Positions 21,892 through 37,131 are shown, counted from the first letter of the stretch. The stretch: 64,000 bases of DNA from an uncultured candidatus Porisulfidus sp. (GCA_965204575.1 OZ241993.1:160001-224000); one strand, 5' to 3'. Notes: generated by a model not told the origin, from the letters alone. Translations and numbers: made by a program.

Positions 21892-23667
21892 CTATCTCGG
21901 CACGAGCCGGGCTTCGTATTCCGCTCTTCCGAGGTCTATCAGGAAATCCCTGATCTCTTTGGGATTCCGCGACTGGATGTAGTGCCTTGCTTCCGATGTG
22001 CTTGGGCAATTCCGGCGCGTGACGTTGAGCGCGCCGCTCCCGAAATCTTCGCCATCCCCGAGAATAACAACCGTGACTTCAATGTCACCTTCTTCCCGCG
22101 GTGACGAGAGTGACTCTCCCTTCATGTACTGGCAGAACCTCGCGATATTCGAGACACTGTTGTGGGCGCTTGGAGAAGTGGGGCTGGACGCGAAATACCC
22201 CTCGTTGGAGAAGCCGTCCGAAAAGTATATGAACTTCTTTCGGACCTCGGAGCTGAAATCCGCCGGCACACCCTCGGTTATCCCCCTGCCGTCGCTCGCC
22301 GAATGCCACACATCCCTCCAATTGGGATGCAGGGCCCGGTAGCCCCATGCGAAGCCCTCATCCGCGGCGGTCTGATAGATGCCGCTGTATCCACCGATAT
22401 GGCGAAGCAGTTCCCGTCTGGAGTTCGAGGCCACCAGCATCGGCTGGCCGCATCCGGGATATGCGCTGACCGCATAGTCCCAGTCACCCGGATAATCCTT
22501 CGCAAACTGGACCGTGTACACGGATCGATCCAGACGCAAATAATCAATCGCCCGAATGTCCGCCGGCGCAAGACCCCTTTCTCCCTGACCTTGGGACAAC
22601 TTCAGGTCCTTCGGCGGGTTCCTGCCACGTGTTTTGCAGGGGCATTGTCCATATACTCTTTCGTCACTTTCACAGGTTGTGCGTCTTTCGCATGACGCAT
22701 CGCCCTCTCCCATGAGCAGATCAAATCCCCTCCGTTGCGACCGGGGCGGGTTCTCCAGAAGATCCGCGTACGCCGCAGACAACCCCTCTCCCGCCGCCAT
22801 GGGCAGCCAGTCCGTGTTGCCGGCATTCGACTTGCGGGCGACGCAGGCGCCTCCCCGCGCCGCCTCCGGCCCCCTGGAGTCAAGAAAGTTGGAATAGCCC
22901 TTCTCTCTGGCGACCAGGCTGGCGACCCGGTTGCCCCCGCGGGTCGCCTGTCTTCCCCGGTAGCGCGGGATCGTCTGCGATTCCGGGGTAATCAGTTCGT
23001 CCGCATAACGGGCCCCGATATTGACGTTATCGCTGAACTCCACGATACTGACCCAGACGTCAGAACTGGTCTCGTCCGAACCGAAAAGGTTGTTCACGAA
23101 CCCCCGCAAGCCGTCCCGGACATTCTCGATCGAGTTGTAATTCTGCATCGAGGCGGATGCGTCCAGAACCAGCGCATATTCGGTCTTGATGCGCCGCCGT
23201 TCGGCCCTGAATCTATTTTCCGCGGTAATTGCGGTGTCTTCGACTTCGGTAATCTTCGCCTTCAACAATGGCGCATAGATTGCTTCGTACGGCAGGGTTG
23301 CGGATGCATTGGAGAACGACGTTTCCTCATCGCCGGAACCTTCTCCATCGTCGGCGTCGGATCCGAGCACGATTTTTTCCGGCTCCCCGGACCCGAGCAC
23401 GCTCCCGGTATTGAAACGGACAAGCCTCTCCTGAACGGACTGCAATTCCCCCGCTGCCGCGGCGGGCCCTTCTTTCGCGCCAAAGACGGCATTGACGGCC
23501 ACGGCCCGGCCGAGGCGGAGGTCAACCGAGTGGTAGTGGATCGCCTCGAAGGCGAGCAGTCCGGACCCGAGCATGGGAATGACCAGCAGGGCTCCGGTGA
23601 GAGCGATGGCCCCCTTCCCCGACAGCAGGAAACCACGCGCCTCGACATTTGTCCGCAACAGTTTCAT
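21892..23667 (-). CDS. tadG: TadG-like pilus-associated protein with vWA domain
   Basis: Pseudopilin-like N-terminal G plus hydrophobic helix, MIDAS LVLDASASM, GFAWGYRALHPNW, FSDG. Last gene of the tad operon. Confidence 0.8.
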   Translation of the reverse strand: MKLLRTNVEARGFLLSGKGAIALTGALLVIPMLGSGLLAFEAIHYHSVDLRLGRAVAVNAVFGAKEGPAAAAGELQSVQERLVRFNTGSVLGSGEPEKIVLGSDADDGEGSGDEETSFSNASATLPYEAIYAPLLKAKITEVEDTAITAENRFRAERRRIKTEYALVLDASASMQNYNSIENVRDGLRGFVNNLFGSDETSSDVWVSIVEFSDNVNIGARYADELITPESQTIPRYRGRQATRGGNRVASLVAREKGYSNFLDSRGPEAARGGACVARKSNAGNTDWLPMAAGEGLSAAYADLLENPPRSQRRGFDLLMGEGDASCERRTTCESDERVYGQCPCKTRGRNPPKDLKLSQGQGERGLAPADIRAIDYLRLDRSVYTVQFAKDYPGDWDYAVSAYPGCGQPMLVASNSRRELLRHIGGYSGIYQTAADEGFAWGYRALHPNWRDVWHSASDGRGITEGVPADFSSEVRKKFIYFSDGFSNEGYFASSPTSPSAHNSVSNIARFCQYMKGESLSSPREEGDIEVTVVILGDGEDFGSGALNVTRRNCPSTSEARHYIQSRNPKEIRDFLIDLGRAEYEARLVPR

Positions 23668-24293
23668 CGGTTCAAGTCCCTCCTCAAGGCAACGAAACGG
23701 CTTTCGACCCATTCGGGCAATACGAAAGTGGACAGGCTCGGATGGGGTGCCCGGTACCGGTAGCAGACGCGGACCACCAGGTAGATCGGCCTCGCGAAGT
23801 TGCGAGCCGTCACGACACCTGGAGCTGGAAAGAGTTCTTCGGTGAACGCGGAGACCACGTCCACATCGCCGGGGCATTCCTCGCCGACCTCCCACGGCAG
23901 ATAGAACCTGCCTCGTCCACGATCGACGGAATACCAGACCGCTTCGATGCCGATTCCGCCAACGTCTCCGTCATTGTCCACCATCATATCGACCAACCGC
24001 AACCAATGCTCCTGGCTCAGATCGATGGCGTTGTAGACCGCGCCCAATAGGGCCGCAACCCGGTTGTCTGGGTCGGGCACCACGGGACGCTCATCGACCA
24101 CGACTTCGGCGAACGAAGCGGTCGCCCTGTGGACGGCGGCGCGGACAAGCAGGTATCGACCGACATCGAATGCACCGTAGAGCAGGATCAGCAGGACGGG
24201 AATGATCAGGGCGGTCTCGACCGCGACGTCGCCGCGCGAACCGGCGCCCGGCCGGTCACGTCGCCTGCCCGCCTCACCGGAAAGCGGGCTCAT
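23664..24293 (-). CDS. tadF: TadE/TadF-like pseudopilin
   Basis: RGDVAVETALIIPVLLILLYG processing motif. Confidence 0.78.
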   Translation of the reverse strand: MSPLSGEAGRRRDRPGAGSRGDVAVETALIIPVLLILLYGAFDVGRYLLVRAAVHRATASFAEVVVDERPVVPDPDNRVAALLGAVYNAIDLSQEHWLRLVDMMVDNDGDVGGIGIEAVWYSVDRGRGRFYLPWEVGEECPGDVDVVSAFTEELFPAPGVVTARNFARPIYLVVRVCYRYRAPHPSLSTFVLPEWVESRFVALRRDLNR

Positions 24294-24717
24294 TCCGTCT
24301 AATCTCCACGAATTCGAGATCCACCGGCTCCCACGCCCGTTCGCCGAGGTTGCCAAAGAACGAATAGGCGTAACGCATCTCGTAGCGGACGACGTCGCCC
24401 GCGCCTCCGAGACCGGCCGTCGTGCTGTCGGCGATGCCAGAAACCCCGCTCGATGAGAATGCCTCGACCTCCAGTTCTTCCGGATCGATCAGCTGGACTT
24501 CGAATGCCTCCGCAAGCGCTTTCGCGTTCGCCTCAAGGTCGCGGTTTTCACCGAGCTTCGCCTGCCAAATCACCTGCTCGAGGACATCCTGCAACTGAAT
24601 ATTGACGTAGAAAAACCTGGTGACCTCGAAAACGAAAAGCGCCAGCGTGAGAAACGCCGGAAACACAAGCGCGAACTGGACGGACGTGAAACCCCGCTCC
24701 GATTTCACGGACATCAC
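24274..24717 (-). CDS. tadE: TadE-like pseudopilin
   Basis: RGFTSVQFALVFPAFL, GLGGAGDVVRY, C-terminal RNEP. Confidence 0.82.
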   Translation of the reverse strand: MMSVKSERGFTSVQFALVFPAFLTLALFVFEVTRFFYVNIQLQDVLEQVIWQAKLGENRDLEANAKALAEAFEVQLIDPEELEVEAFSSSGVSGIADSTTAGLGGAGDVVRYEMRYAYSFFGNLGERAWEPVDLEFVEIRRNEPAFR

Positions 24718-25469
24718 TTCACCCGGGAGAGCAGCCGCTCGGCTTCGCCGTCCGAGACCACCGACGACAACAATGCCTTCGCCTCGCTTCTCCGGCCGCC
24801 CTTGGCCAGACCCAGAGCCTCCAGAATGATGATCGACCGCTCCGATATGTCGTCATCAACGGCATCCGCCCGGATTCCCTCGAGAATCTCGAGGCTCTGG
24901 TCGGTCTGCCCGGACAGTAGCAACGAGAGCGCAAGATTGTAGGAGACTTTCTGGCTGGGCTGGACCGACAGCGCCTTCCGGTAGGCCGACTGCGCCCCGG
25001 GGCGGTCGCCGAGATTGTCCAGAGCGACCCCCTGCATATTGAGCATTTCGACATCGTCCGGATGCTGCTCTTCGTGACGCCGGGCAAGACCGAGCACCTT
25101 GTCGAATTTCCGACATTGGAGGTAGCTTTTGGCCAACAACCTGGTATGCTCGTTGCCTCCTCCCTCTCCCTGCGCCAAGCTTGCGCTCCGACGCAGGACC
25201 GGGATCGCTTTTCCACACTCGCGCAATTCGACGAGCAGCCTGCCATAGGCGACATGCGCGGAGAAATCGTCCGGATTCTCTTCGACATGCCGCTGGGCGA
25301 TCAGCACCGCAAACCCGGGATTGCCGCTCTTGCGCGCCGCATCAATCAGCCGCGCCCGTTCATCGACGGCGGGGGTGAGCGACGGCGCCACGCATGCGGC
25401 GAGGACAGGAGCGAAAGCAAAGACATGCAGGCCACCGCGCACAGACTGCCGCACGCGCAAGCCGCTCAT
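24714..25469 (-). CDS. tadD: TadD TPR lipoprotein
   Basis: Lipobox LAAC, TPR repeats (GVALDNLG...AY..AL; NLALSLLLSG). Confidence 0.82.
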   Translation of the reverse strand: MSGLRVRQSVRGGLHVFAFAPVLAACVAPSLTPAVDERARLIDAARKSGNPGFAVLIAQRHVEENPDDFSAHVAYGRLLVELRECGKAIPVLRRSASLAQGEGGGNEHTRLLAKSYLQCRKFDKVLGLARRHEEQHPDDVEMLNMQGVALDNLGDRPGAQSAYRKALSVQPSQKVSYNLALSLLLSGQTDQSLEILEGIRADAVDDDISERSIIILEALGLAKGGRRSEAKALLSSVVSDGEAERLLSRVK

Positions 25470-26371
25470 GCTCCAATGCCCTGCAGGGTGCGGACAAGGT
25501 TCACGATGGCCGGTGCGCCAAGCAATGCAACCACCGGGAACAGGATGAACACGATCAGCGGGACGCTCATCCGCGCGGGTGCCGCGCCGGCGCGTTCCTT
25601 TATGTCGTCGAGTTGCACCAGGCGGCTCTGGTCGGCGGTCGTCCGCAACGCATCGACGAGCGGCGTTCCGTAGCGCATCGACTGCAACAGGGTCTGTGCC
25701 ACCGTTTGCAACTCTTTGACGTCCAGGTGCCGGCTGAACCGTGTGAGCACCGCTTCCCGGTCTTCGTTAATTGTGAGTTCCGAGCACAGCTTGTCGAACT
25801 CAACCGCGAGTTCAGGCGCGACGGGATTGATTTCGTCCGCGACCAGTTTCAGGGCCTTCTCGAAGGTGAGGCCGGAGCCCACGCAGATCGTCAACAGTTC
25901 CAGTGCTTCGGAAATTCGGCGCCGGACTCTGGCGGTGCGGGTCTTGACCCGGTCGTTCAGCCACCACTCGCTCAGGCGCGACGCCAGAAAGGTCGCCACC
26001 ATTTGCGTGAACAGGGCTCCGGGCGTGGCCAGCGCGGCCAGATCTTCCGGTGCGATGAAAAATATGGATGCCAGCCAGAAGACCGCGAGCAATGCGACCC
26101 GGCCGAACAGGAAGAAATCGACCGCCTCGTCCCGGAAAAACCCCGCCCGCTGAAGCCGGGCGGCAATTCGTTCGCGTTCGCTCCTCGTCGACAGGAATCG
26201 CCCGAACGACAGGAAAAAGCGGAACTCTCCGGCGAACCTGCCCCCGCCCTGAAGCGACAGCGTGCGCCGGATGCGCACATTCAGCCGGTTCTGCGCCACC
26301 ACGCCTTCCGCCACCAGATAGGCGAGAAGGCAAATCGCAAGGATTCCGCCAAGAAAGACAGCCTGCTGCAT
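25466..26371 (-). CDS. tadC: Tad inner-membrane platform protein TadC
   Basis: ALELLTICVGSGL, LLQSMRYGTPL, MSVPLIVFILFP. Confidence 0.9.
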   Translation of the reverse strand: MQQAVFLGGILAICLLAYLVAEGVVAQNRLNVRIRRTLSLQGGGRFAGEFRFFLSFGRFLSTRSERERIAARLQRAGFFRDEAVDFFLFGRVALLAVFWLASIFFIAPEDLAALATPGALFTQMVATFLASRLSEWWLNDRVKTRTARVRRRISEALELLTICVGSGLTFEKALKLVADEINPVAPELAVEFDKLCSELTINEDREAVLTRFSRHLDVKELQTVAQTLLQSMRYGTPLVDALRTTADQSRLVQLDDIKERAGAAPARMSVPLIVFILFPVVALLGAPAIVNLVRTLQGIGA

Positions 26372-26379
26372 CCCGGCTC

Positions 26380-27267
26380 CTATTCGAACCGCGTCATGCG
26401 CCTGACGATCGCCAGGCCGAGCACGATGCTCACCACCGCATAGGCCAGCACCATCCTGCCGTCGGGATCGTTGAACAGGAAATGAAACCCGGCCGGATTG
26501 ACGGCTGCCTGTATGCCGATCAGGGCCAGCGGGATGACCGCGACCACCTTCGCGCTTGTGCGCGGCTCCGCCGTCAGAATCTCCAGTTCGCGACTGGCGT
26601 TTGACCGCGCCCTGATGCCGCGACTCAGCTGGGCCAGAACGTCGGAGATGTGGCCGCCGGTCTCGCGGTTGATGACCAGCACGGTGCAGAAGAACTCCAG
26701 TTCAGGGATGTCTATGTCGGCCGAAAGTTTTCTCATGACGGTACCGAATGGCACACCCAACTCCAGCTGATCCTTCATCTCCTCGAAACGCCCCCGGACC
26801 GGCTCGGAGAAATACTGCCCCATCTCGCCCAAGGCCACTTCGACCGACACGCCCACCACGACCAGGCGCGCCAGACCATCCACCGCCTCGGGAAAATCAG
26901 TGAGAAACTGTTTCCTGATCGCCCGTTTCCGCATGATGCCACGGTAATAGACGACCGCGCCTGCCACGACCGCGGCACCCGGCGGGACAAGCCACCACTC
27001 ATGTGTGAATAGCCAGATGGCAGCGGCGGCGGCGAGAAAAACGCCGACAGCGACCCATTTGCTGCTGCGGTCCCGCAGCCAGGCCGGTGTTCGATGGTAA
27101 AGCCAAAAATGGTCGGCGAGACTTGAGAGGATCTTCCGGAGAGACCCATGTTTGGCGTCCGCATGCCGTCGAATCCGCCGATTCAGTGCGGCATTCCGCT
27201 TCTCGACACGGTAGAGCAGCCCCGCGAGGCACAGGATGGCGAAAAAAACCGCCGCATCAGCACCCAT
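26380..27267 (-). CDS. tadB: Tad inner-membrane platform protein TadB
   Basis: FPEAVDGLAR, INRETGG, LTAEPRTSA. Start MGADAA. Confidence 0.9.
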   Translation of the reverse strand: MGADAAVFFAILCLAGLLYRVEKRNAALNRRIRRHADAKHGSLRKILSSLADHFWLYHRTPAWLRDRSSKWVAVGVFLAAAAAIWLFTHEWWLVPPGAAVVAGAVVYYRGIMRKRAIRKQFLTDFPEAVDGLARLVVVGVSVEVALGEMGQYFSEPVRGRFEEMKDQLELGVPFGTVMRKLSADIDIPELEFFCTVLVINRETGGHISDVLAQLSRGIRARSNASRELEILTAEPRTSAKVVAVIPLALIGIQAAVNPAGFHFLFNDPDGRMVLAYAVVSIVLGLAIVRRMTRFE

Positions 27268-28516
27268 GGTCCAGCAGCTCCGCCAATTGGTCGAACAGTC
27301 CGTATCTCCTGAACTTGTCGAGCGCACGGCTGACCTCGCCGACGCGCACGAACGCGCCGATGCCGTCGTCACCCACCCGGTATCGAAAGACCGGCCGGGT
27401 GACCGCAAAGCCGTTTTCGAAATGAAGTTCGTTGATGTACGACACCCGGCGCTGGCCGTCGATGCCCCGCTCAACCTGAACCACCCAGTCCACCGCGTTT
27501 GCGATCTGGTGTGACGTATGTGCCATGTCGAGACCCGCCGACGCCATCTGAAGCATGTCCTGCAGACGCGCGAGCGCATCGTCCGGGCTGTTGGCATGCA
27601 ATGTCGAAAGCGATCCGTCGTGGCCGGTGTTCATCGCCTGGAGCATGTCGAACGCCTCTTCGCCCCGGACTTCACCGAGAATGATCCGCTCGGGGCGCAT
27701 TCTCAGCGCGTTCCGGACCAGGTCCCTCTGCGTGACCCGGCCTTGTCCCTCGACCCCTTCGGTCCGGACTTCCAGGCTGATGACGTGGGACTGCCATAAT
27801 TCGAGTTCGGCGACATCTTCGATCGTGATGACACGCTCGTCGGCCCCGATATGCGCCGACATCGCATTGAGGAGCGTGGTTTTGCCCGCACCGGTTCCAC
27901 CGGAGATGATCATGTTCATCCGCGCCTCGACCCCGAGTCGAAGCAGGCGCGCCATTTCGTCGCTCATGCTTCCGATCTCGACGAGTTCGTCAAGATGCAG
28001 TTTCCGACGCACGAACCTGCGGATTGAGATGCAGGGCCCGCTGAGGGAGAGCGGCGGAATGACGATATTGACCCGGCTGCCGTCGGGCAGGCGGGCATCG
28101 ACCATCGGCGAGGATACATCCACGCGACGCGACACCGAATTGGCGATTCGCTGCGCCATGTTGAGCACGTGGCCGTCGTCGCGGAACCGCACCCCGCTCA
28201 ACTCCAACTTGCCTTCTCGCTCGATATAGACCTGATCGGCACCATTGACCAGTATGTCCGAAATCTCGGCATCGTCGATCAGCGGCTGCAGCGGTCCCAA
28301 CCGCACCATGTCATTCAGGATTTCCTGGGAAATCGCAAGTTGCTCCTGCCGGTTGAGCAGGTAGGAACTTTCCGACACGGCCTGTTCGACCAACTCGGCG
28401 ATTTCTTTCTCGAGTTCCCGAGGGTTCAGGTCGAGTGCGGCCTGTGCATCAATGTGGGCGGCGACGTAATCCTGGATCCGGTCGAAAACGACCCGGTCGT
28501 CGGCGTGCGGGGTCAT
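27257..28516 (-). CDS. tadA: Tad pilus ATPase TadA/CpaF
   Basis: ISDILVNG, PMVDARLPDGSRVN, SGGTGAGKTT, ALRMRPERIILGEVRG, MNTGHDGS. Confidence 0.96.
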   Translation of the reverse strand: MTPHADDRVVFDRIQDYVAAHIDAQAALDLNPRELEKEIAELVEQAVSESSYLLNRQEQLAISQEILNDMVRLGPLQPLIDDAEISDILVNGADQVYIEREGKLELSGVRFRDDGHVLNMAQRIANSVSRRVDVSSPMVDARLPDGSRVNIVIPPLSLSGPCISIRRFVRRKLHLDELVEIGSMSDEMARLLRLGVEARMNMIISGGTGAGKTTLLNAMSAHIGADERVITIEDVAELELWQSHVISLEVRTEGVEGQGRVTQRDLVRNALRMRPERIILGEVRGEEAFDMLQAMNTGHDGSLSTLHANSPDDALARLQDMLQMASAGLDMAHTSHQIANAVDWVVQVERGIDGQRRVSYINELHFENGFAVTRPVFRYRVGDDGIGAFVRVGEVSRALDKFRRYGLFDQLAELLDHGC

Positions 28517-29640
28517 CGCCGGGGCCTCCACCCCCTGGCCGGCCGATGCTGCGGGCCCAGTCGGGCGGCAATCTTTCGGATATGCCGGTGAAGCCTCGAC
28601 CGTCGGCTGCCGGGCGGAATCCCGTCGAGAAGCTGGGCCTTCAGGCGCCTGACCTTCGGGATGGCGATCACGTCTTCGCTCTGCAGCAACGAGCGGAATT
28701 TCGCAACCCGGATGTCGGATTCGGCATAAGGATCGTTGATGACGACGGTCGGCCGCTGGCCGCTCTCGCTGCACGACGCGATCATGTCGTTGACCGCCCG
28801 CAAGGACGGCAGGCCGCGATCCGACACCAGAACCACATGATCGGCGTGACGCAGCACATGGCTGCTGAACTCCGGGTTCCCCTTGTCGGTCTTCCAGATC
28901 GTGCAGGCATCGTTCGCGCTGATTACATCAAAAAACTTCGCCGCATCGGCCGGGACGAACCGGCTGCCTCCCGTAATGTCGTAGCCGCCGTAATAGCGGA
29001 TCTCCTTGTTGAGCCGGAGTGCGATCTGGTTCGTCATCAGTTCGTCAATCCGGTCGCCGTGACCGCACAGCCGGTGCAACTCGCCGGTCCGGTCCTCGCC
29101 CAGCCAGTAATTGACCGTCGGGTGGGTCCAGTTCATGTCGACGATCTCGACGCTTCGCGTGCCGGAGAGGAACTGCGCCAAGCCGGCCGATATGAGTGAA
29201 GCACCGATCCCCAGCTTGACGCCGTGGACCACGATATCGCCCGGCCGGTCCGCCTTGTCCTGGCCGACGATGTAGTCGACCGCCATGGGCAGTTCCTGGT
29301 CGATAACGAAATATTCGTCACAGCCGGCCCGTTTTGCGCGCCGGTAGAATTCGAGGGTCGAATCGTCGCCGAGCCCGATGATTCGCGTCCCGTTCGCCCG
29401 ACCGCGCAACGCACGCAGTTCGGCTTCGACGGAGGCGTCGCGCAAATCCACGACGATCTCGCCGATTCGCGAAAGGTTGGCCTCCCGGTCGATGCCCCCA
29501 AGCGCCGACAGCGGCTTGGTCAAGGTCGTGCCCGCCCGGGATTCGAGCCGGGACATCAGTGCATGCGGCAGAGTGCTGCTATCCGTGTAGACGACGATAT
29601 CGTGCGCAGTCTCGTCCGCAGGATGCCGCCAGGGTGTCAT
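28513..29640 (-). CDS. tadZ: TadZ/CpaE pilus localisation protein
   Basis: Degenerate receiver domain (YRRAKRAGCDEYF) plus MinD-like degenerate P-loop (GVKLGIGASLI). Position upstream of tadA. Confidence 0.8.
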   Translation of the reverse strand: MTPWRHPADETAHDIVVYTDSSTLPHALMSRLESRAGTTLTKPLSALGGIDREANLSRIGEIVVDLRDASVEAELRALRGRANGTRIIGLGDDSTLEFYRRAKRAGCDEYFVIDQELPMAVDYIVGQDKADRPGDIVVHGVKLGIGASLISAGLAQFLSGTRSVEIVDMNWTHPTVNYWLGEDRTGELHRLCGHGDRIDELMTNQIALRLNKEIRYYGGYDITGGSRFVPADAAKFFDVISANDACTIWKTDKGNPEFSSHVLRHADHVVLVSDRGLPSLRAVNDMIASCSESGQRPTVVINDPYAESDIRVAKFRSLLQSEDVIAIPKVRRLKAQLLDGIPPGSRRSRLHRHIRKIAARLGPQHRPARGWRPRR

Positions 29641-29641
29641 C

Positions 29642-30028
29642 TTACCTCCCCCCTCCCGAAGCGCCGACCTCGACCGAAGGCTCACGCAAGGGCTCGACTT
29701 CTCCCTTGCGGTAGCGCAGGACCCCGCTCACCGCGATGATGCTGTCCGTCCCCGCCACAGCAGCGGGTTCATGCGACGTGTTCTGCACCGCGGCATTGTG
29801 CGCGGTCGCGCAGCCGAAATGAAGGCCCACGGCTCCATCCCGCCACCACATCGGCCGGCGGCTGATGGGGACTGCGCAACGATGCGCCATACCGGACCGT
29901 CCAGCGGACGCTTCCGGCATCTCGACCTGTGCGGACATTCCCACCTGCCGATCAATGGGCTGATTCAGGGAAGTGTGGCACGCCGAAAGGACAAGGATCG
30001 ACAGTACTATCAGGCTGTGTTCTTTCAT
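29642..30028 (-). CDS. CpaD/RcpB-like pilus lipoprotein
   Basis: Lipobox LSAC, FGCATAHNAAVQ motif, position after the secretin. Confidence 0.72.
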   Translation of the reverse strand: MKEHSLIVLSILVLSACHTSLNQPIDRQVGMSAQVEMPEASAGRSGMAHRCAVPISRRPMWWRDGAVGLHFGCATAHNAAVQNTSHEPAAVAGTDSIIAVSGVLRYRKGEVEPLREPSVEVGASGGGR

Positions 30029-30038
30029 GCTTGAATCC

Positions 30039-31472
30039 TCAGTACATAAAGCCTTGGGGAACCGCGCTCTTCGGCACGTACGTGTGGCCGAGAAAGAGGC
30101 GCGCGATCGGCCCCTCCAACTCAATGTTTTCATTGGGGATAGCCAAAATCTCGTTCGTCGGCCCGGCGATCGACGCGGTGGCGATGATCACGAGTTCGGA
30201 ATCGCCGCGCTTGAATTCGGACGACCTCACCAGAGCACCGATGAGCGGGATATCGCCGAGAAACGGAAACTTGGACACCGTGTCCGTCAAATCCGCCTTC
30301 AGAAGGCCGGCAAGCGCGAAGGATTGTCCGGAGGCGAGCTCCACGGTCGTGTCCGCACGGCGGATCGAGAGCCCGGGATAGGTTAAACCGCCGATCGTGA
30401 CTCCGTTGGCGGCCGAGGGTTCGCTGACTTCCGGCCGGATGCGGAGGCTGATCCGGTTGTCCGCCAGCACGGTCGGCGTCACATCAAGCAACACGCCGAA
30501 GGGTCTGAATTCGATATTGGGGGACCCGTCCGCATAAGTGGGGAATGGTATTTCGCCGCCCGAGAGAAAGCTTGCCGTTTCTCCAGAAGCAACCGACAGG
30601 TTCGGCTCGGCCAGAACGGAGACGAAGTTCTCCTGCGCCAATACGTCAATCAGGCCCGCGAGGTCGCTCGGACTGGTCGGCTTATTCGCCTTCCCCGGTA
30701 GCAAATCAGCGGGTACCGTGCCGAAAATCGGAGATTGCTGGAAGCCGAACTCGGTGGAGTCGACGCTGAACCGGAGGTTCTGCCACTGTAGGCCGAGTCT
30801 TTCGATGATTTCGCGTTTGACTTCGGCGAACCGCACCTTGATGCTGACCTGTCCGCCGCCGGTTACGACCAGCCGGTTCACGACCCGGCCAAACCTCTCG
30901 CCGACGACACCCTCGCCCTCGCCTGCGCTACGCTCGTCCCCGCCTGCCTGCTGACTCCCATCCGCGCCCTGCTGGTCTCCGTCTGCACCTGCGTCCGTTT
31001 GCCGCTGCTCACGAGCGAGGAACGCCTCGACCAGTCCGATGACGTCGGTCGCCGTCACCGCGTCCGGCACGGAACCACTCAGGACGACGTTGCCGTTCGC
31101 CGCCGCCTCGACCGCAATATCGAACTCGGGGTATTCGTCCTCCAGGGCGCGCTTCACCTTCGACAGGTCCGGGACGACTTCGAGCTTCGCGCTCCAGATC
31201 GTCTTGCCGAAGTCGTCCATGACGAAAACTGCCGTCCTGCCCAGCTTCTGGCCGAAGACGATCATTTCCCGTTCTGTGATGACCTGGTACCCGGCCACTT
31301 TCGGCGAAGAGATGAACGCCGTCTTCATGGGCGACGCGAGTTTGACCTTGACGGCGGCACCGATCTTCAGTTCCAGCACTTCATCCGCGTCCTCGATCGT
31401 GGCCCGCGGCTGGGCGTCGGACAACAACCCCAACCACAAACCGGCCGCCAGAAGAAAGAGGAATGCCCTCAT
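30039..31472 (-). CDS. rcpA: Tad secretin RcpA/CpaC
   Basis: Signal peptide, BON-like domain, LAEPNL..SGETASFLSGGEIP, ELASGQSFALAGL, PFLGDIP. Confidence 0.93.
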   Translation of the reverse strand: MRAFLFLLAAGLWLGLLSDAQPRATIEDADEVLELKIGAAVKVKLASPMKTAFISSPKVAGYQVITEREMIVFGQKLGRTAVFVMDDFGKTIWSAKLEVVPDLSKVKRALEDEYPEFDIAVEAAANGNVVLSGSVPDAVTATDVIGLVEAFLAREQRQTDAGADGDQQGADGSQQAGGDERSAGEGEGVVGERFGRVVNRLVVTGGGQVSIKVRFAEVKREIIERLGLQWQNLRFSVDSTEFGFQQSPIFGTVPADLLPGKANKPTSPSDLAGLIDVLAQENFVSVLAEPNLSVASGETASFLSGGEIPFPTYADGSPNIEFRPFGVLLDVTPTVLADNRISLRIRPEVSEPSAANGVTIGGLTYPGLSIRRADTTVELASGQSFALAGLLKADLTDTVSKFPFLGDIPLIGALVRSSEFKRGDSELVIIATASIAGPTNEILAIPNENIELEGPIARLFLGHTYVPKSAVPQGFMY

Positions 31473-32380
31473 TGCGCATACCGGTCGTAGTACCGGTCGT
31501 CCGCCTCGGCGATCTTCCGTCTTTGCTCGGTCCCGATGAATTCGACAATTTCGACATTCTTCTTCGGTGCGGGAAATTCCCGGACGACGTCATGCGACCG
31601 CACGGCCCTTCCGGCCGTGGACGGCGAAGTCTCGCGGGCCGCCCGCTCGAAATTGCTCCTCAGGCTCAGCGAAAGCGTTCCCATTCGCCACGCAACAGTG
31701 ATGATTTCCGCCTGTCGCGGCGTGACCTCCAGCGTGGCCGTGCTTCTTTTCGGCGAGGGCGACTTGGCATCGGGCGACCCCTCTTCCTCCTCGGGGATGA
31801 GATAGGCGATCTTCCGATCTATGGCGATCACGCGCATGTCCTCAAGAATCGTCTTGGCGATGAATCCGCTTTTCCCGTCGGCCCGCACGTCGTCGTTCAG
31901 ATCGGTGAACAGGATCAGATCGACCCGGTCACCCGGCTGGACCAGGCCCGAGTTCCCGGTGACCGCACCAATCTCGATCGAGATCGCGCGTTTTCCGGGT
32001 TCGAGCACGGAGGCGAGGAACCGGCTCTCCTGAGGCAGCAGGAACATCCTGCGGTTGACAAAATCGCCCCGGTCCGCGTCGTTCATCACCAAGGCGCCAT
32101 CGAAGTCTTCGAGTTGCTGGCCGGTGCGCAGCATGGCGTAGGATGGAATGCTTGTCTTTTCCGGATCGAAGTTCGCCCATTTAAGGTCTTCCGTGCGAAT
32201 GAAGTCGCCCTTGGATACCGACCGGTCGAACATGAGATATTCGGGCAACGGCGATGCAATGGCGGCAACAGGCTCCTCCTCGACGGTGATAGCAATATCC
32301 GCAGCCTTATCGCCAAGGCGTCCGTAGAGGACGAAACCCAGAATGGCAATGACGAGCAGGGCGATCAGCGTGATTCTCAT
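31469..32380 (-). CDS. cpaB: Flp pilus assembly protein CpaB/RcpC
   Basis: SAF-like domain, PGKRAISI, GLVQPGDRVDLI, TATLEVTP.QAE, GTLSLSLR. Confidence 0.9.
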   Translation of the reverse strand: MRITLIALLVIAILGFVLYGRLGDKAADIAITVEEEPVAAIASPLPEYLMFDRSVSKGDFIRTEDLKWANFDPEKTSIPSYAMLRTGQQLEDFDGALVMNDADRGDFVNRRMFLLPQESRFLASVLEPGKRAISIEIGAVTGNSGLVQPGDRVDLILFTDLNDDVRADGKSGFIAKTILEDMRVIAIDRKIAYLIPEEEEGSPDAKSPSPKRSTATLEVTPRQAEIITVAWRMGTLSLSLRSNFERAARETSPSTAGRAVRSHDVVREFPAPKKNVEIVEFIGTEQRRKIAEADDRYYDRYAQ

Positions 32381-32395
32381 GGCAGCGCGTCCAGG

Positions 32396-32815
32396 TTAGG
32401 CTTGCAGAACGACGCTCGCGAGAACGATGGCGATCCCGTAAGGAACGCCCCTGTCAGGGCGTTCGCCGTCTCGTCTTTGCAATACGCGGAGCACGAGATA
32501 CGGCAACGTAACCGCCACACCGATGAGCGACATGCAGAGGGCGAACGCGGCCACCTCGCCGACGTGCCACAAGGACAGGCCGAAAAACAACTTCGCGTCG
32601 CCGGCCCCGACGAGGTTCAGTTGCCAGACCAGATAGCCGACCGCCAGGACTGCCACGGACTGTTTCAGCGCGGGCATCATCGCGGACCCGGACAGGTGCA
32701 GCACGATCAGGCCCGCCACCACCAGGTAGACGACGACCCAGTTATCGATCCGTCGATGACGCCAGTCCGTGTAGCAGACCCACAACCAGACCGGAGCCAG
32801 CAGGTACCAGTGCAC
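32396..32815 (-). CDS. tadV: Prepilin peptidase TadV/CpaA (A24)
   Basis: YTDWRHRRIDN, GAGDAKL, GVPYGIAI. Start uncertain (GTG 32815 or TTG 32824). Confidence 0.88.
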   Translation of the reverse strand: MHWYLLAPVWLWVCYTDWRHRRIDNWVVVYLVVAGLIVLHLSGSAMMPALKQSVAVLAVGYLVWQLNLVGAGDAKLFFGLSLWHVGEVAAFALCMSLIGVAVTLPYLVLRVLQRRDGERPDRGVPYGIAIVLASVVLQA

Positions 32816-32824
32816 ATTCGCCAA

Positions 32825-33016
32825 TTATTCTTCGGGCGTAGCCTCGGTCGGAACAGCCTCCACCACAGCCTCGAAAATATCGTTGAGCGCAACCCTGAAT
32901 GCGCCTTCTTCGGCAACTATCGCGGCGATCGCCACCGCAAGGCCCGCGGCCAGGATGCCGTATTCGATGGACGTAACCCCGTCCCTTCTTTTGAGGAAAT
33001 TGGAAAAAGTTTTCAT
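32825..33016 (-). CDS. flp: Flp type IVb pilin
   Basis: MKTFSNFLKRRDG/VTSIEYGILAAG Flp motif. GGAGG ribosome-binding site upstream of ATG 33016. Confidence 0.93.
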   Translation of the reverse strand: MKTFSNFLKRRDGVTSIEYGILAAGLAVAIAAIVAEEGAFRVALNDIFEAVVEAVPTEATPEE

Positions 33017-33051
33017 AGTGTCCCTCCATAATCCGACCCGCATTTTATCAA

Positions 33052-33106
33052 AATAATAATAATAATACAAGTGATAATGATTATTAATTGTATTCTATGT
33101 TATACT
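33052..33106. promoter_or_regulatory. Fur-box-like operator and extended -10 in the flp/hmuS divergent spacer
   Basis: GATAATGATTATTAATTGT (33073-33091) matches GATAATGATAATCATTATC at 13/19. (AAT)5 at 33052-33066. TGtTATACT at 33098-33106 points to hmuS. Confidence 0.7.
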
Positions 33107-33223
33107 TCGGGTGAGTAAATGTTGAGACTGTGGGGCCTTGCCGTACTTGCCACGGTCCGACCCTAGAAAATTCGGGGACTATGCCAGCCTACCTCGTCAT
33201 TCAGGAGAACGGGAGGAAATTCC

Positions 33224-34318
33224 ATGAGTCATGCCGCTGAAGACCTGAACGGTTCCGCCGAGGAACTGAAAACACGCTATCAACGGCTGAAGAAAGAGCA
33301 GCCGAAGATTCGCGCCCGCGACGCCGCGCGCGAACTGGGCGTCTCGGAAGGCAGCCTGCTGGCCTCCCGCGTCGGAGAAGATGCGACCCGCCTGGCCGAC
33401 AGCGCCAACGACATCCTGATGGACATCCGGCCACTCGGAGAGGTGATGGCGCTGACCCGCAACGAGTCCTGCGTGCACGAGCGCAAGGGCGTTTACGACA
33501 ACGGCCAGTTCTACAACCACGGCAGCATGGCGATGGGCCTGTTCGTCAACCCGGACATCGACCTGCGCCTGTTCATGAACCACTGGAAGTACAACTTCGC
33601 CGCCATTGAGCAGACCCGCGGCGACCCCCGCAAGAGCCTCCAGTTCTTCGACAAGGAGGGCCAAGCCATCCACAAGGTCTACCTCACCGACAAGTCCGAC
33701 GAGGCTGCCTATGACGCGCTCGTCGACAAGCACCGGCACTCCCGCCAGGACACGGCCATCAAGATCGACGCCTACGCCGAGAAAGCGCCTGACGCGCCGG
33801 ACGACCAAGTGGACTGGGCCGCCTTCCGCACCGCCTGGGAGAGTCTCAAGGACACCCATGACTTCTACCCGATGCTCCGCAAGTTCAAGGTCGGGCGGGA
33901 ACAGGCGCTCATCCGCATCGGCCGGGATTTCGCCTACCCGGTCGGAAACGATTCGGCCCGCCGTATTCTCGACCAAGTCCGCGACCGGCAATGCGAAATG
34001 ATGGTGTTTGTCGGGAACCGCGGCTGCATCCAGATCCATACCGGGCCGGTCAAGAAACTGGCCGAATACGGGCCTTGGTACAACGTGCTCGACCCGATGT
34101 TCAACCTGCACCTGCGGGAAGACCGCATCGCGCGCACCTGGGTGACGAGGAAGCCGACCGAGGACGGCATCGTCACCGCCCTGGAAATCTTCGACGGAGA
34201 CGGCGAACTCATTGCAACCTTTTTCGGCAAGCGCAAGCCCGGCATCCCGGAGCTGGAACTGTGGCGGGAAATTATCGCCGGGATTCCGGCCAGCGTCGAA
34301 GATGTCCATGCCGTCTAA
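33224..34318 (+). CDS. hmuS: Haemin-degrading/trafficking factor HmuS/HemS
   Basis: RARDAARELGVSEG, MALTRNESCVHERKG, IDLRLF, DTHDF, MVFVGNRGCIQIHTG, FFGKRKPG. Confidence 0.95.
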   Translation: MSHAAEDLNGSAEELKTRYQRLKKEQPKIRARDAARELGVSEGSLLASRVGEDATRLADSANDILMDIRPLGEVMALTRNESCVHERKGVYDNGQFYNHGSMAMGLFVNPDIDLRLFMNHWKYNFAAIEQTRGDPRKSLQFFDKEGQAIHKVYLTDKSDEAAYDALVDKHRHSRQDTAIKIDAYAEKAPDAPDDQVDWAAFRTAWESLKDTHDFYPMLRKFKVGREQALIRIGRDFAYPVGNDSARRILDQVRDRQCEMMVFVGNRGCIQIHTGPVKKLAEYGPWYNVLDPMFNLHLREDRIARTWVTRKPTEDGIVTALEIFDGDGELIATFFGKRKPGIPELELWREIIAGIPASVEDVHAV

Positions 34319-34467
34319 GTGGCCTGCCCGCTGGATTTTTGATGGGGGTTGCCGCCAGCGGCCTGATCGCGGTGCTCTCCCAGTGCCTGCAATCCCGTAT
34401 CTTGGCTGATCTTCCACCGGGGGACATCGAATGCCCCCGACCTCCTGATGCGAAACGAAATCGAATC

Positions 34468-35301
34468 ATGAGAACCATCCTGACCTGCTTGACCCTGTTC
34501 CTCGCCTTGCCGGCCCAAGCGGAGGCACCGCAACGGGTCGTCACGATCGGCGGCGCGCTGACCGAAACCGTGTATGCACTGGAGGCGAAAGACCTGATTG
34601 TCGGCAGCGACACGACCAGTTATTACCCCCCGGCAGCAGATAAACTGCCCAAGGTCGGCTACCAGCGCACCCTGTCCACGGAAGGTATCCTGTCACTTAA
34701 TCCCGACCTAGTCATCCTCACTGAAGAGGCCGGACCGCCTTCGGTCCTGCGCCAATTGGAATCGGCAGGGGCCGAACTTCTCATCTTGAAGGCCGGACGC
34801 TCCCTGGAGGACGTCAAGACCAACACCCTGAAAATCGCTCAGGCACTGAACCGCGAGGAAACGGGCGCGGCCCTGATTCGGAAGATCGATGTTGAAAGCC
34901 GGGAACTGGCCCATGCAGTCGCAGGCCTGAAGCATCGGAAACGAGTGATGTTCATCCTGCAGCATGGCGGCGGGGCACCGATGGTGGCAGGAAAAGGTAC
35001 TGCAGCCGACAGCATCATCGCACTTTCCGGAGCCGTCAACGTCGTCCAGGACTACGACGGCTACAAGCCGCTCTCTCCGGAAGCCGCGGTAGCGTTGAGG
35101 CCGGATGTCATCCTCATCACCAAGCGGGGACTGGAGCAGGCAGGCGGGAAAGACTCGCTGCTCAAGACGCCCGGCCTGTCGCTCACGCCCGCGGCACGGC
35201 AAGGCCATGTCGTTGCGATGGATGCCCTGCTGATGCTGGGGTTTGGCCCACGCACGGTGCAGGCGGCTTCAGAGCTTAGCCAGGCATATGAGGGTCCATA
35301 A
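34468..35301 (+). CDS. hmuT: Haem ABC transporter periplasmic binding protein
   Basis: Signal peptide, RVVTIGGALTE, DTTSYYP, LPKVGYQRTLS (haem-ligand Tyr motif), LGFGPR. Confidence 0.92.
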   Translation: MRTILTCLTLFLALPAQAEAPQRVVTIGGALTETVYALEAKDLIVGSDTTSYYPPAADKLPKVGYQRTLSTEGILSLNPDLVILTEEAGPPSVLRQLESAGAELLILKAGRSLEDVKTNTLKIAQALNREETGAALIRKIDVESRELAHAVAGLKHRKRVMFILQHGGGAPMVAGKGTAADSIIALSGAVNVVQDYDGYKPLSPEAAVALRPDVILITKRGLEQAGGKDSLLKTPGLSLTPAARQGHVVAMDALLMLGFGPRTVQAASELSQAYEGP

Positions 35302-36340
35302 CCTGCTGGCAAAGCGAGCGCATGCGCCATTGCCGCATTTGCGGCTGAAAACCCCGGCCCTGCTGGTATTGAGCGGCCTCTTGTGCGGGACGCTAGTCAT
35401 CGCCGCATCCATCGGCGCCCTTCCGGTTCCGGTTCTGTCTCTGCTGAACGGCGAACTTGCCGAGCAACAGGAGACGGTGCTTTTCTTCATCCGGATTCCG
35501 CGCGTCCTTCTGGCCGCGTTTGTCGGTGCCGCGCTGGCGGTGTCGGGAGCCGCCATGCAAGGACTGTTCCGTAACCCGCTGGCCGACCCCGGGCTGATCG
35601 GCATTTCGAGCGGCGCGGCCTTGGCGGTCGCCGTGGTGATTGTCTTGGCTGGACCGCTCACGGGAGCCTTGGGACTGTACAGCTTGAGTGTTGCCGCCTT
35701 CGCCGGCGGGCTCGCCACCTGCCTGCTGATCTTCCGTTTCGCACAACTTACCGGAACTTTTTCCGTCACCTACATGCTGCTTGCGGGAATCGCCATCAAT
35801 GCGCTGGCCGGAGCCGGGGTTGGCTTCCTGACCTACCTGAGCGACGACCAGCAGTTACGATCCCTGACGTTCTGGACGATGGGCAGCCTTGGAGGAGCAC
35901 TCTGGCTGGCCGTGGGAGTGGCCGCAACAATCATCCTGCCCACCCTGTTCTTCCTGATCCGCAACGCCCGGAAACTCAATATCCTGCTCCTCGGGGAGCA
36001 TGAGGCGCGGCACCTCGGCGTGGACAGCGAGCGGCTGAAACGCGTCATCATCGTCTGCACGGCGCTCTCGGTCGGGGCGGCCGTCGCCGTGAGCGGCATC
36101 ATTGGTTTCATCGGGCTGGTCGTCCCACATCTGATGCGCCTGACCATCGGACCCGACCACCGGCTGTTGCTTCCGGCCTCGGCGCTGTTCGGAGCCTTCC
36201 TGCTGCTGGTGGCCGACACGTTCGCCCGAACCGTGGTGTCCCCTGCGGAAATGCCAGTCGGCATTCTGACCAGCCTGATCGGCGGGCCTTTCTTCCTTTG
36301 GCTGCTCATCCGGGAATACGGTCGGAGGTTCGGTTCGTGA
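35288..36340 (+). CDS. hmuU: Haem ABC transporter permease
   Basis: IRIPR, QGLFRNPLADPGLIG, FWTMGSL, IGFIGLVVPH, GGPFF. Confidence 0.93.
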   Translation: MRVHNLLAKRAHAPLPHLRLKTPALLVLSGLLCGTLVIAASIGALPVPVLSLLNGELAEQQETVLFFIRIPRVLLAAFVGAALAVSGAAMQGLFRNPLADPGLIGISSGAALAVAVVIVLAGPLTGALGLYSLSVAAFAGGLATCLLIFRFAQLTGTFSVTYMLLAGIAINALAGAGVGFLTYLSDDQQLRSLTFWTMGSLGGALWLAVGVAATIILPTLFFLIRNARKLNILLLGEHEARHLGVDSERLKRVIIVCTALSVGAAVAVSGIIGFIGLVVPHLMRLTIGPDHRLLLPASALFGAFLLLVADTFARTVVSPAEMPVGILTSLIGGPFFLWLLIREYGRRFGS

Positions 36341-37131
36341 TCGAAGCAAAAAACCTTTCGTATCACGCTGGGAACACCCTGATCCTGAAAAGCGTGGACG
36401 TCACCGTCAAGCCGGGAGACATCACGGCGATCATCGGCCCGAACGGCGCGGGAAAATCTACGCTCATGAAATGCCTTGCCGCTTCCTGCCAGCCGGACCG
36501 CGGCGTCGTTCTTCTCGAAGGCCGTTCCCTTGCCGACTATTCACTGGATGCCCTTTCCAGAAAGCGGGCCATGCTGTCGCAGTCCAATTCCATCAGTTTC
36601 CCTTTCACCGTGCTTGAGATCGTGATGATGGGACGCAATCCCTACGTGATCGGGGGGAGCCCAGTCGAAGATGTCGAGGTGGTGAAAAAAGCACTCGAAA
36701 GCATGGATGCCTGGCACCTGAAAGACCGCATTTTCCCGACCCTCTCCGGCGGCGAACAGCAACGCGTCCATCTCGCCCGAGTATTGGCGCAACTGTGGGA
36801 ACAGGAAAACGCCTACCTGTTTCTTGATGAACCGACCTCGGCCGTGGATATGAAGCACCAATATCAGGTTTTCGATTTAGCCCGCAGGATGGCCAGGGAA
36901 AGAAACCTGGCGGTTTGCGTAATCCTGCACGATCTGAATCTTGTCCTGCGCTATGCCATGCATTCCATTCTCATGAAAGAAGGTCGAATCTATGCATCGG
37001 GAAGGACGCGTGATGTCCTTACGCCCGAAAACGTCATGGACGTATTTGAAGTGCCGCCCGAATTCTTTTCTGATTCAAAGACGCGGAAGACGCGTCCCGA
37101 TTGGACCGAAGCCCTATATCCGTTGCCGTGA
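36337..37131 (+). CDS. hmuV: Haem ABC transporter ATPase
   Basis: GPNGAGKST, LSGGEQQRVHLARVLAQLW, LDEPTS, LHDLN. Confidence 0.93.
   Translation: MIEAKNLSYHAGNTLILKSVDVTVKPGDITAIIGPNGAGKSTLMKCLAASCQPDRGVVLLEGRSLADYSLDALSRKRAMLSQSNSISFPFTVLEIVMMGRNPYVIGGSPVEDVEVVKKALESMDAWHLKDRIFPTLSGGEQQRVHLARVLAQLWEQENAYLFLDEPTSAVDMKHQYQVFDLARRMARERNLAVCVILHDLNLVLRYAMHSILMKEGRIYASGRTRDVLTPENVMDVFEVPPEFFSDSKTRKTRPDWTEALYPLP

Follow-up and report, generated by a model that had tools for sequence, protein, structure and literature searches.

We identified, in a 64,000-nucleotide stretch of DNA from an uncultured candidatus Porisulfidus sp. (hereafter, the window), an inserted island that combines a Tad pilus operon with a cut-down haem-uptake operon, transcribed away from each other across a shared spacer; in the reading that we favour with moderate confidence, both operons are repressed by Fur from a single box in this spacer and derepressed upon iron starvation. 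The block (21892..37131) lies between cysZ and der and comprises two arms, i.e., 13 close-packed genes from flp to tadG on the minus strand and hmuSTUV on the plus strand. With the likely start calls, each gene abuts or overlaps the next in both arms, which fits the expectation for operons. Pfam and NCBIfam matches, together with the start calls, bear out the initial annotation of a 13-gene flp-to-tadG operon and of hmuSTUV diverging from a 207 bp spacer; Pfam matches also support the placement of this ~15-kb block between cysZ and der.

By gene content, the tad arm is a putatively complete Tad/Flp pilus operon with the order flp-tadV-rcpCAB-tadZABCDEFG. Ten of the 13 minus-strand genes presented Pfam families above cut-off (Flp_Fap, Peptidase_A24, RcpC, Secretin with pilus-N, T2SSE, T2SSF in two genes, TPR, and TadE in two genes), so that the core Tad set of peptidase, TadA ATPase, two TadB/C platform proteins, RcpA secretin, and RcpC is complete over Pfam cut-offs. 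The first gene, flp (32825..33016), encodes a prepilin of 63 aa (Flp_Fap, 34.2 bits versus a cut-off of 32.2), whose translation carries a G/xxxxEY processing motif (RDG/VTSIEYG). It is followed by genes encoding the prepilin peptidase TadV/CpaA (32396..32824; Peptidase_A24, 53.8 bits), RcpC/CpaB (31469..32380; RcpC, 102.9 bits, and the CpaB equivalog TIGR03177, 163.8 bits versus a cut-off of 71), and the secretin RcpA/CpaC (30039..31472; Secretin, 137 bits, and T2SS-T3SS_pil_N, 54 bits). The ATPase gene tadA/cpaF (27257..28516; T2SSE, 226 bits) has a likely start at 28516 with a ribosome binding site (RBS) present, and the closest relatives found for its product are ≤56% identical. Downstream are the platform protein genes tadB (26380..27267; T2SSF, 47.4 bits; likely start 27267) and tadC (25466..26371; T2SSF, 57 bits), tadD, encoding a TPR protein (24714..25469; TPR_14, TPR_19, and TPR_16 over cut-off), and two pseudopilin genes, tadE (24274..24717; TadE, 35.7 bits) and the TadE-like tadF (23664..24293; TadE, 38.3 bits). 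The names rcpB, tadZ, and tadG rest mainly on position, as none of these three genes presented an over-threshold family. The gene in the rcpB/cpaD position (29642..30028), named from position alone, showed zero family matches even at E ≤ 5. The gene in the tadZ/cpaE position (28513..29640) had no Pfam match and a weak match to the CpaE-like TIGR03815 (E = 2.2e-5, far under cut-off); 22–28% identical tblastn matches to it were found just upstream of tadA in four of 80 Tad loci. The gene in the tadG position (21892..23667) showed a sub-threshold VWA_2 match (20.5 bits versus a cut-off of 27); its long ORF runs to 23895, and its likely start at 23667 is an RBS-preceded ATG overlapping the tadF stop.

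All four plus-strand genes contained Pfam families above cut-off (HemS/ChuX, Peripla_BP_2, FecCD, and ABC_tran). The first, hmuS (33224..34318; HemS, 263.7 bits, two domains), encodes a cytoplasmic haem-binding/degrading protein of the HemS/ChuS/PhuS type with nearest relatives that are 77% identical; it is followed by hmuT (34342..35301; Peripla_BP_2, 136.4 bits; likely start call), encoding a periplasmic binding protein, hmuU (35288..36340; FecCD, 310.3 bits), encoding a permease, and hmuV (36337..37131), encoding an ATPase (NF010068 haem ABC ATP-binding equivalog, 295.7 bits versus a cut-off of 261). No outer-membrane receptor gene, tonB, or exbBD was found within the hmu locus of the island. 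The closest relatives carry the order hmuR-tonB-hmuS-exbBD-hmuTUV, with hmuR preceded by a Fur box; hmuSTUV is thus, as judged from this gene order, a cut-down form of the haem operon of these relatives. Among the 11 TonB-dependent receptors of the genome, none reached the haem-receptor models TIGR01785 and TIGR01786 (best score 119 bits versus 316.85), and the receptor of a relative's hmu operon yielded a weak plug-domain match only (E = 2.7e-7) and no tblastn match at 1e-3 when compared to the genome. One receptor (genome positions 1791937-1794759) carries a FRAP...H...NRNL stretch, which presumably resembles the haem-receptor signature; therefore, a non-canonical haem receptor may exist elsewhere in the genome.

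The 15.3-kb block is a lineage-specific insertion between cysZ (21035..21778, plus strand; EI24/CysZ, 134.5 bits) and der (engA; 37217..38524, minus strand; MMR_HSR1 twice and KH_dom-like). While cysZ was found in 15 of 15 congeners, neither hmuS nor rcpC was found in any of them. In all eight of these congeners that were fetched, cysZ and der are direct convergent neighbours, 38–52 bp apart, and smc-orf-cysZ and der-bamB are collinear. The final few codons of cysZ diverge from those of the congeners at the insertion point, with alignments ending at residues 238–243 of 247. Across 61 relatives, hmuS was present in one (G000 only) and rcpC in two, G000 and, as a weak match (E = 3.3e-5), a member of another family.

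The 207 bp divergent spacer (33017..33223) is AT-rich in its flp-proximal half, and GC content falls to 0.54 in the 500-bp interval that holds it. The (AAT)5 array and the Fur-box-like sequence previously noted in this spacer are both present, at 33052..33066 and 33072..33086, respectively. The Fur box, TGATAATGATTATTA, matches 13 of the 14 specified positions of the 7-1-7 consensus and scores 14/19 on the 19-mer consensus; GATAATGATTATTAATTG is located at 33073-33090. The (AAT)5 tract is the same in three run-contig sets from one study; by our own reading, it can also be read as NATWAT hexamers beside the Fur box. A scan of the whole genome (1.82 Mb) for the 7-1-7 Fur box TGATAATNATTATCA identified a single site with ≤1 mismatch, the spacer box, as well as two sites with 2 mismatches and 34 with 3 mismatches; the iid expectation for ≤1-mismatch boxes in the genome is 0.034. 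One of the two 2-mismatch sites is located just upstream of a gene encoding a siderophore/FecA-like TonB-dependent receptor, and one 3-mismatch site (15/19 on the 19-mer) is located 33 bp upstream of a gene encoding an iron-type solute-binding protein, so that, in this genome, canonical boxes mark genes for iron uptake. The gene for a Fur equivalog lies at genome positions 720153-720515 (NF006999, 176.6 bits versus a cut-off of 146). Most 3-mismatch sites fall in AT-rich mobile or defence DNA, so AT-richness alone yields weak matches, and the spacer box could in the same way have arisen by chance in an AT-rich promoter region or in foreign DNA and not bind Fur, in which case the spacer would simply hold two ordinary promoters, which a nucleoid protein may silence. 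We consider this very unlikely, since the spacer box is the genome's sole ≤1-mismatch site, adjoins a haem-uptake operon, which is a classic Fur target, and is followed in rank by sites that mark iron-uptake genes.

A consensus promoter scan of the spacer yielded two matches (0.4 expected), both on the flp strand and flanking or overlapping the Fur box. Predicted flp promoter P1 (33059..33087, minus strand; TTAATA, 17-bp gap, TATTAT; 9/12 positions) has its -10 within the (AAT)5 tract, and the Fur box overlaps its -35 and spacer; relative to predicted promoter P2 (33092..33119, minus strand; TTTACT, 16-bp gap, TAGAAT; 9/12 positions), the box is at about +1 to +14 and would thus cover the start site. 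Toward hmuS, we read a candidate extended -10 (TGtTATACT; 33098..33106, plus strand), which is under the scan threshold because its -35 is poor; the box is at about -41 to -27 relative to this element and would cover the -35 region. As the best box in the genome lies over predicted promoters for both operons and the genome encodes a Fur equivalog, joint Fur repression of the tad and hmu operons is likely. Under iron-replete conditions, Fe-Fur would occupy the spacer box and block RNA polymerase in both directions; since the box would occlude predicted promoters both ways, co-derepression of the two operons under iron starvation is plausible. A precedent is published for V. vulnificus, where iron limitation induces a Tad locus (PMC6748444), and the Fur-like boxes of the metagenomic loci L127 and L128 (see below) are parallels.

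A possible but rather unlikely alternative is that the box serves hmuSTUV only, either as the operator that this operon kept after loss of hmuR and tonB or as a newly recruited one, with flp under the control of some other cue, e.g., contact with a surface or a regulator from another part of the genome. The Fur box of the relatives heads an hmuR-led operon, so the box in the window may simply be the hmu operon's own regulatory site. Such boxes are frequent at hmu loci; a ≤2-mismatch box was found 30–320 bp upstream of the receptor gene in eight of 12 hmu loci headed by a TonB-dependent receptor (TBDR) homologue, and two further hmu loci (L060 and L063) presented a box 60–160 bp upstream of hmuT. 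Fur-like boxes were uncommon among 18 metagenomic Tad loci in which flp could be recognised and was preceded by 100 bp or more of sequence; within 300 bp of flp, one locus (L127) presented a ≤2-mismatch box, having 2 mismatches and lying ~70 bp upstream of flp, and one (L128) presented a 3-mismatch box. L127 and L128 appear to be related. The accessible part of an iron-restriction array study of A. pleuropneumoniae likewise contains a single flp-operon gene in its table, at -1.28-fold (PMC1832192). Against control of hmuSTUV only, the centre of the box is nearer to the flp ATG (63 bp) than to the hmuS ATG (145 bp), and the box overlaps the sole two consensus-like promoters of the spacer, both directed toward flp; an flp promoter could hardly escape the effect of a protein bound there. 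We retain repression of both operons from the shared box as the preferred reading.

The initial annotation had also proposed an iron-starvation module, with conserved tad-hmu synteny in other genomes as a check. This check fails: adjacency of tad and hmu was found in one of 61 relatives, i.e., in this genome alone, no tad genes were found at 35 hmuS loci, and tad and hmu were not within 100 kb of each other in any of 34 sampled genomes holding both (three in the class sample and 31 in the phylum sample). In one of 80 metagenomic TadA loci (L128), 25 of which extend 6.5 kb or more upstream of TadA, hmuS is near TadA. Like the window, L128 has hmuS divergent from a flp-tadV-rcpC-rcpA-tadA array, and its spacer holds a Fur-like box with 2 mismatches; it differs in having a response regulator and a histidine kinase between spacer and flp, and its HmuS and TadA are 42% and 51% identical, respectively, to those of the window. 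The locus extends just 760 bp past hmuS, too short to show hmuTUV. In the genomes and loci sampled, the pairing of tad with hmu is an isolated case rather than a conserved module. It looks as if the two operons came to lie side by side by accident when the island was assembled in this lineage, which would have put the pilus under iron control. Of the earlier proposal, co-induction upon iron starvation thus remains plausible, given the genome-best Fur box over predicted promoters, while the label of a module does not hold, as the adjacency does not recur.

A further alternative is that the pilus works together with haem import, by attaching cells to a source of haem or by providing an outer-membrane route, e.g., the RcpA secretin, that replaces HmuR. 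The receptor-less hmu operon, the TonB-dependent receptors falling short of haem-receptor cut-offs, the weak match of the relative's receptor, and the back-to-back arrangement across a Fur-like box in L128, a second and unrelated locus, all fit such a function, and a mutant PilQ secretin admits haem into N. gonorrhoeae according to the accessible part of a review (PMC6449446, citing Chen et al. 2004). We nevertheless regard it as quite improbable, because the pairing is not conserved at hmuS loci or in co-holding genomes, because the receptor with the FRAP...H...NRNL stretch may be a non-canonical haem receptor, and because common regulation does not imply common function. The more specific proposal that the Tad machine was recruited into iron acquisition through the shared Fur operator, with the pilus holding cells on a surface rich in haem or RcpA passing haem in place of the missing HmuR, and with L128 as a second case, appears very doubtful.

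If Fur controls both arms, as we favour, horizontally acquired DNA would wire an adhesin into the iron-starvation response via a single shared operator, a clear natural case of such wiring, and attachment would be tied to the scavenging of nutrients in an organism whose genome is reduced (1.8 Mb). Should Fur act on hmu alone, the locus would be an ordinary genomic island, and the main value of this analysis would lie in the failure of the module reading in the synteny comparison. In either case, a haem importer without its receptor raises the question of how haem crosses the outer membrane here.

The hmuRSTUV, phuR-phuSTUVW, and shu loci are Fur-repressed haemin uptake loci. Compared to this type, represented here by L048 (TBDR-tonB-hmuS-exbB-exbD-hmuT-hmuU-hmuV), the locus in the window shares HmuS, HmuT, HmuU, and HmuV in the same order and a Fur box ahead of the operon, but is without the receptor, tonB, and exbBD, and the rest of the genome yielded no cognate receptor; its Fur box is directly ahead of hmuS rather than hmuR. 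We take the 13-gene order of the tad arm to match that of the Aggregatibacter actinomycetemcomitans flp-rcp-tad and Caulobacter cpa loci, with prepilin, peptidase, RcpC, secretin, TadZ-position gene, ATPase, two platform proteins, TPR protein, two pseudopilins, and a large last gene in common; the window differs from these loci in the low identity of its TadA to the best relatives found (≤56%), in the mainly positional assignment of rcpB, tadZ, and tadG, and in the Fur box over the predicted flp promoter. The E. coli enterobactin genes fepA-fes and entC-fepB have bidirectional Fur-controlled promoter regions, which, like the spacer described here, are short and place one Fur site between two divergent operons (Fur control being predicted in the window); however, both arms of the E. 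coli regions belong to one iron-uptake pathway, whereas one arm in the window encodes an adhesive pilus. PilQ of N. gonorrhoeae, as covered in the accessible part of the review, offers a pilus secretin as a receptor-independent haem route (PMC6449446), although the pilus in that case is of type IVa and the secretin carries a point mutation; haem passage through RcpA of the window is hypothetical. The accessible part of an account of the Vibrio vulnificus tad1 locus describes neither a Fur box nor an adjoining haem operon (PMC6748444), unlike the arrangement in the window, and an iron response of flp that is predicted in the window is published there; flp-1 of tad1 is up about 131-fold under iron limitation, and induction of a Tad locus by iron limitation is thus already known from V. 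vulnificus (PMC6748444).

The host genome is a single contig (1,816,663 bp; GC 0.60) of which the window comprises bases 160001–224000, and 13 ORFs are arranged head to tail on its minus strand at 21892–33016 of the window. Ten of these ORFs matched Pfam families above threshold (Flp_Fap, Peptidase_A24, RcpC, Secretin with a pilus N-domain, T2SSE, two T2SSF, TPR, and two TadE), and RcpC also passed the CpaB equivalog model. Flp has 63 aa and a processing motif (RDG|VTSIEYG). The last gene, in the tadG position, presented a sub-threshold VWA match, and the gene preceding tadA, in the tadZ position, presented a weak CpaE-like match as well as 22–28% matches at the same position in four of 80 other Tad loci; both names are mainly positional, as is that of the small gene after the secretin (rcpB position), for which the family search returned no match. 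With the most plausible start codons, each tad gene abuts or overlaps the next, as in a putative single operon. A gene caller based on GC3 was dropped because it separated real from shadow ORFs poorly. The plus-strand genes at 33224–37131 encode a HemS/ChuS-type HmuS, a Peripla_BP_2 binding protein, a FecCD permease, and an ATPase (HmuV) that passed the haem ABC ATPase equivalog model. Because of these profile matches on both strands, which comprise Pfam families and equivalog models, the gene list, coordinates, and flanking genes (cysZ and der) of the initial annotation are correct, and we also confirmed its observation that the two operons diverge across a 207-bp spacer containing a Fur box and an (AAT)5 array.

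Within this spacer (33017–33223), (AAT)5 is found at 33052–66 and GATAATGATTATTAATTG at 33073–90. The palindromic 7-1-7 Fur consensus is TGATAATNATTATCA, and the site at 33072–86 differs from it by one mismatch. This box ranks first among the genome's Fur sites; a whole-genome scan with the 7-1-7 consensus identified it as the sole site with at most one mismatch (0.034 such sites expected under an iid model), along with two 2-mismatch and 34 3-mismatch sites. Against the older 19-mer consensus the box matched at 14 of 19 positions, which places it among the top 23 genome windows. One of the two 2-mismatch sites immediately precedes a gene for a siderophore/FecA-like TonB-dependent receptor, and one 3-mismatch site is found 33 bp upstream of a gene encoding an iron-type solute-binding protein, suggesting that canonical boxes are likely to be meaningful in this genome. 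Most of the remaining 3-mismatch sites have the appearance of chance matches and are located in AT-rich DNA of toxin-antitoxin, restriction, or transposase loci. Next to one AT-rich region with a 3-mismatch Fur-like match (60101–60700) is a Plasmid_RAQPRD-family gene. This family is typically found on integrative conjugative elements; a mobile element may be present close to the window's end. Among the Fur-family proteins encoded in the genome, Fur itself passed the equivalog model, and a Zur-like paralogue was below the model cut-off. A third Fur-family paralogue (genome 575988–576443) matched the Irr/PerR models best, also below cut-off (93 bits vs. 150).

In a consensus scan, the spacer yielded two sigma-70-like promoters, each reading toward flp (minus strand), where shuffled sequences gave an expectation of 0.4. 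In one predicted flp promoter (TTAATA-17-TATTAT, 33087..33059), the box covers the −35 element and the spacer while the −10 element lies within the AAT tract; in the other (TTTACT-16-TAGAAT, 33119..33092), the predicted start falls within the box. For hmuS, a candidate extended −10 element on the plus strand (TGtTATACT, 33098–33106), which was unreported by the scan because its −35 element is poor, was read by eye; it would place the box at approximately −41 to −27 of the predicted transcript and give a leader of about 110 nt. Measured from its center, the box is 63 bp away from the flp start codon (ATG) and 145 bp away from that of hmuS (also ATG). Given this position and these distances, a Fur dimer or oligomer would be predicted to hinder transcription of flp no less than that of hmuS. 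Fur bound to this box would jointly repress both divergent operons, and we consider such joint repression the most likely mechanism, a reading that is probable rather than secure. A search for RNA data sets covering 32400–34400 returned none, and returned three DNA-contig sets, all from one study and perhaps the source of the assembly; these sets presented no difference in 32700–33500 and no length variation in the (AAT)5 tract, comparisons in which rare variants are dropped from the contigs. In Rfam, the region 32500–33700 yielded a chance-level match only (E 0.28, well short of the gathering score). Folding of the hmuS 5′ leader (33110–33235) was no better than that of shuffled sequences (z +1.25); therefore, no riboswitch or thermometer is proposed.

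A total of 35 loci encoding HmuS relatives (39–77% identity) were found and retrieved with up to 10 kb per side. Twelve of these (L046–L051 and L054–L059), which are among the closest HmuS relatives, presented the order receptor-tonB-hmuS-exbB-exbD-hmuT-hmuU-hmuV, annotated as such in L048 (L048:7176–14689) and identified by tblastn in the other 11; in all 12, a TonB C-terminal domain directly precedes hmuS. Compared with this order, hmuSTUV in the window is a cut-down form that has lost receptor, tonB, and exbBD. Eight of the 12 loci contain a Fur box with at most two mismatches 30–320 bp upstream of the receptor gene, and in the window the Fur box is directly ahead of hmuS. The main rival to joint repression, in which Fur serves hmu alone, would account for a box in this place; set beside the predicted flp promoters, both of which involve the box, we regard it as rather unlikely. 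A blastn-short comparison of the spacer with the regions upstream of hmuR in relatives, the region upstream of hmuS in L045, and the spacers of two metagenomic TadA loci, L127 and L128, detected similarity at the Fur box alone; the box may have come along with either hmu or tad, or may have originated at this site. L045 itself, part of a complete 2.1-Mb chromosome, encodes the closest HmuS (77% identity; L045:10001–11204). A short exbB-like fragment is all that comes after hmuS there; with neither hmuTUV nor a receptor gene, the locus resembles an hmu operon in decay.

Among 61 related genomes, HmuS was found only in the genome that contains the window, and RcpC in that genome and, as a weak match, in one from another family. 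cysZ is present in all 15 congeners, and in each of the eight for which its region was fetched, smc, a small ORF, cysZ, der, and bamB are collinear (69–97% protein identity), with cysZ and der convergent and 38–52 bp apart. The block is a lineage-specific island: it is absent from the closest congeners (CysZ 91–93%) as well as from the one that was most distant among those fetched (69%), so the economical reading is a single gain on this lineage. The last few codons of cysZ were replaced at the insertion; no direct or inverted repeats of at least 9 bp were found between the two island junctions, and no integrase or tRNA was seen inside the block. Its GC content (0.60–0.63) and tetranucleotide distance (11th–76th percentile of 5-kb genome windows) are indistinguishable from those of the host, so that composition does not point to a foreign origin. 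No close TadA was encoded in the five genomes whose HmuS is most similar (best matches 45% and 37% identical, on other contigs), and no sign of a common donor for hmu and tad was found.

The genome encodes 11 TonB-dependent receptors, none of which reached the cut-offs of the haem-receptor models, and the L048 receptor presented only a weak match to the genome, at the plug. One TonB and ExbB/ExbD homologues are encoded elsewhere in the genome. A 940-aa receptor encoded 1.6 Mb away (genome 1791937–1794759), also sub-cut-off in these models, contains a FRAP...H...NRNL stretch, which we take to resemble the haem-receptor signature; this protein is a lead as a candidate non-canonical haem receptor. 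The genome search detected a ferrochelatase gene and no canonical haem oxygenase, suggesting that haem is more likely to be used as an iron source via HmuS than as a cofactor that the cell cannot make. The ferrochelatase gene (760817–761767, minus strand) is located directly upstream of a gene encoding a 985-aa TonB-dependent receptor (757376–760333, minus strand) at genome 757376–761767. Another TonB-dependent receptor (genome 950910–953381) contains long His/Asp/Glu-rich runs, which suggest a metal-binding loop like those of zinc- and metal-piracy receptors.

Conserved tad-hmu synteny, which the initial annotation had named as a check on its proposal, was not observed: tad genes were found at none of the 35 HmuS loci (tblastn, E ≤ 1e-6), and hmuS was found near TadA in one (L128) of 80 metagenomic loci, all with TadA identities ≤56% and 25 of them with 6.5 kb or more of sequence upstream of TadA. 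A metagenome search with the island secretin found no relative. Among 400 genomes sampled from the same class (one unscored), a TadA-like gene (E ≤ 1e-60) was present in 52 other genomes, a tally that includes the unpublished G358, and HemS in 17 others; in the three genomes with both, the genes were 1 Mb apart or on different contigs. In a phylum-level sample of 400, TadA was present, among the matches listed, in 143 others (including the unpublished G818, without HemS) and HemS in 50 others. By the same listed matches, 31 genomes had both; in eight of these they share a contig, with the nearest pair 111 kb apart, and in 23 they are on different contigs, where adjacency across a contig break is possible. 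A further 54 weaker TadA matches lie outside this listing, which allows for additional Tad loci in some genomes. Synteny within 100 kb was thus seen in none of the 31 genomes in the phylum sample and none of the three in the class sample.

L127 and L128 look related to each other. In L127, a 2-mismatch Fur-like box precedes flp by about 70 bp and is located in a 465-bp AT-rich intergenic region (L127:4619–4918), with no hmu gene found within 10 kb. L128 (L128:763–6473) carries hmuS on one strand and, on the opposite strand, response regulator-histidine kinase-flp-tadV-rcpC and onward, separated by a 476-bp spacer with a 2-mismatch Fur-like box, AATGATAATGATTGTTATTATC; it is an unrelated second case of haem and Tad genes lying on either side of a Fur-like box. 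Eighteen metagenomic loci had a recognizable flp with 100 bp or more of upstream sequence; of these, L127 and L128 were the sole loci with a box of at most three mismatches within 300 bp. The initial proposal of an iron-starvation module, in which the pilus works with haem import, gains from the L128 parallel and from the missing haem receptor; the failed synteny test counts against it, and we consider such a module very improbable.

A literature search found no description of a tad or flp promoter with a Fur box, which is not proof of absence. Vibrio vulnificus flp-1 is reported to be approximately 131-fold up-regulated under iron limitation (PMC6748444), and a table from an A. pleuropneumoniae iron-restriction array includes one flp-operon gene, at −1.28-fold (PMC1832192). 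A mutant PilQ secretin of N. gonorrhoeae admits haem, according to a review (PMC6449446). Tad pili responsive to iron are already known, as are shared Fur operators, and the parts of the island are members of known families; the tad-hmu combination is a new variant.
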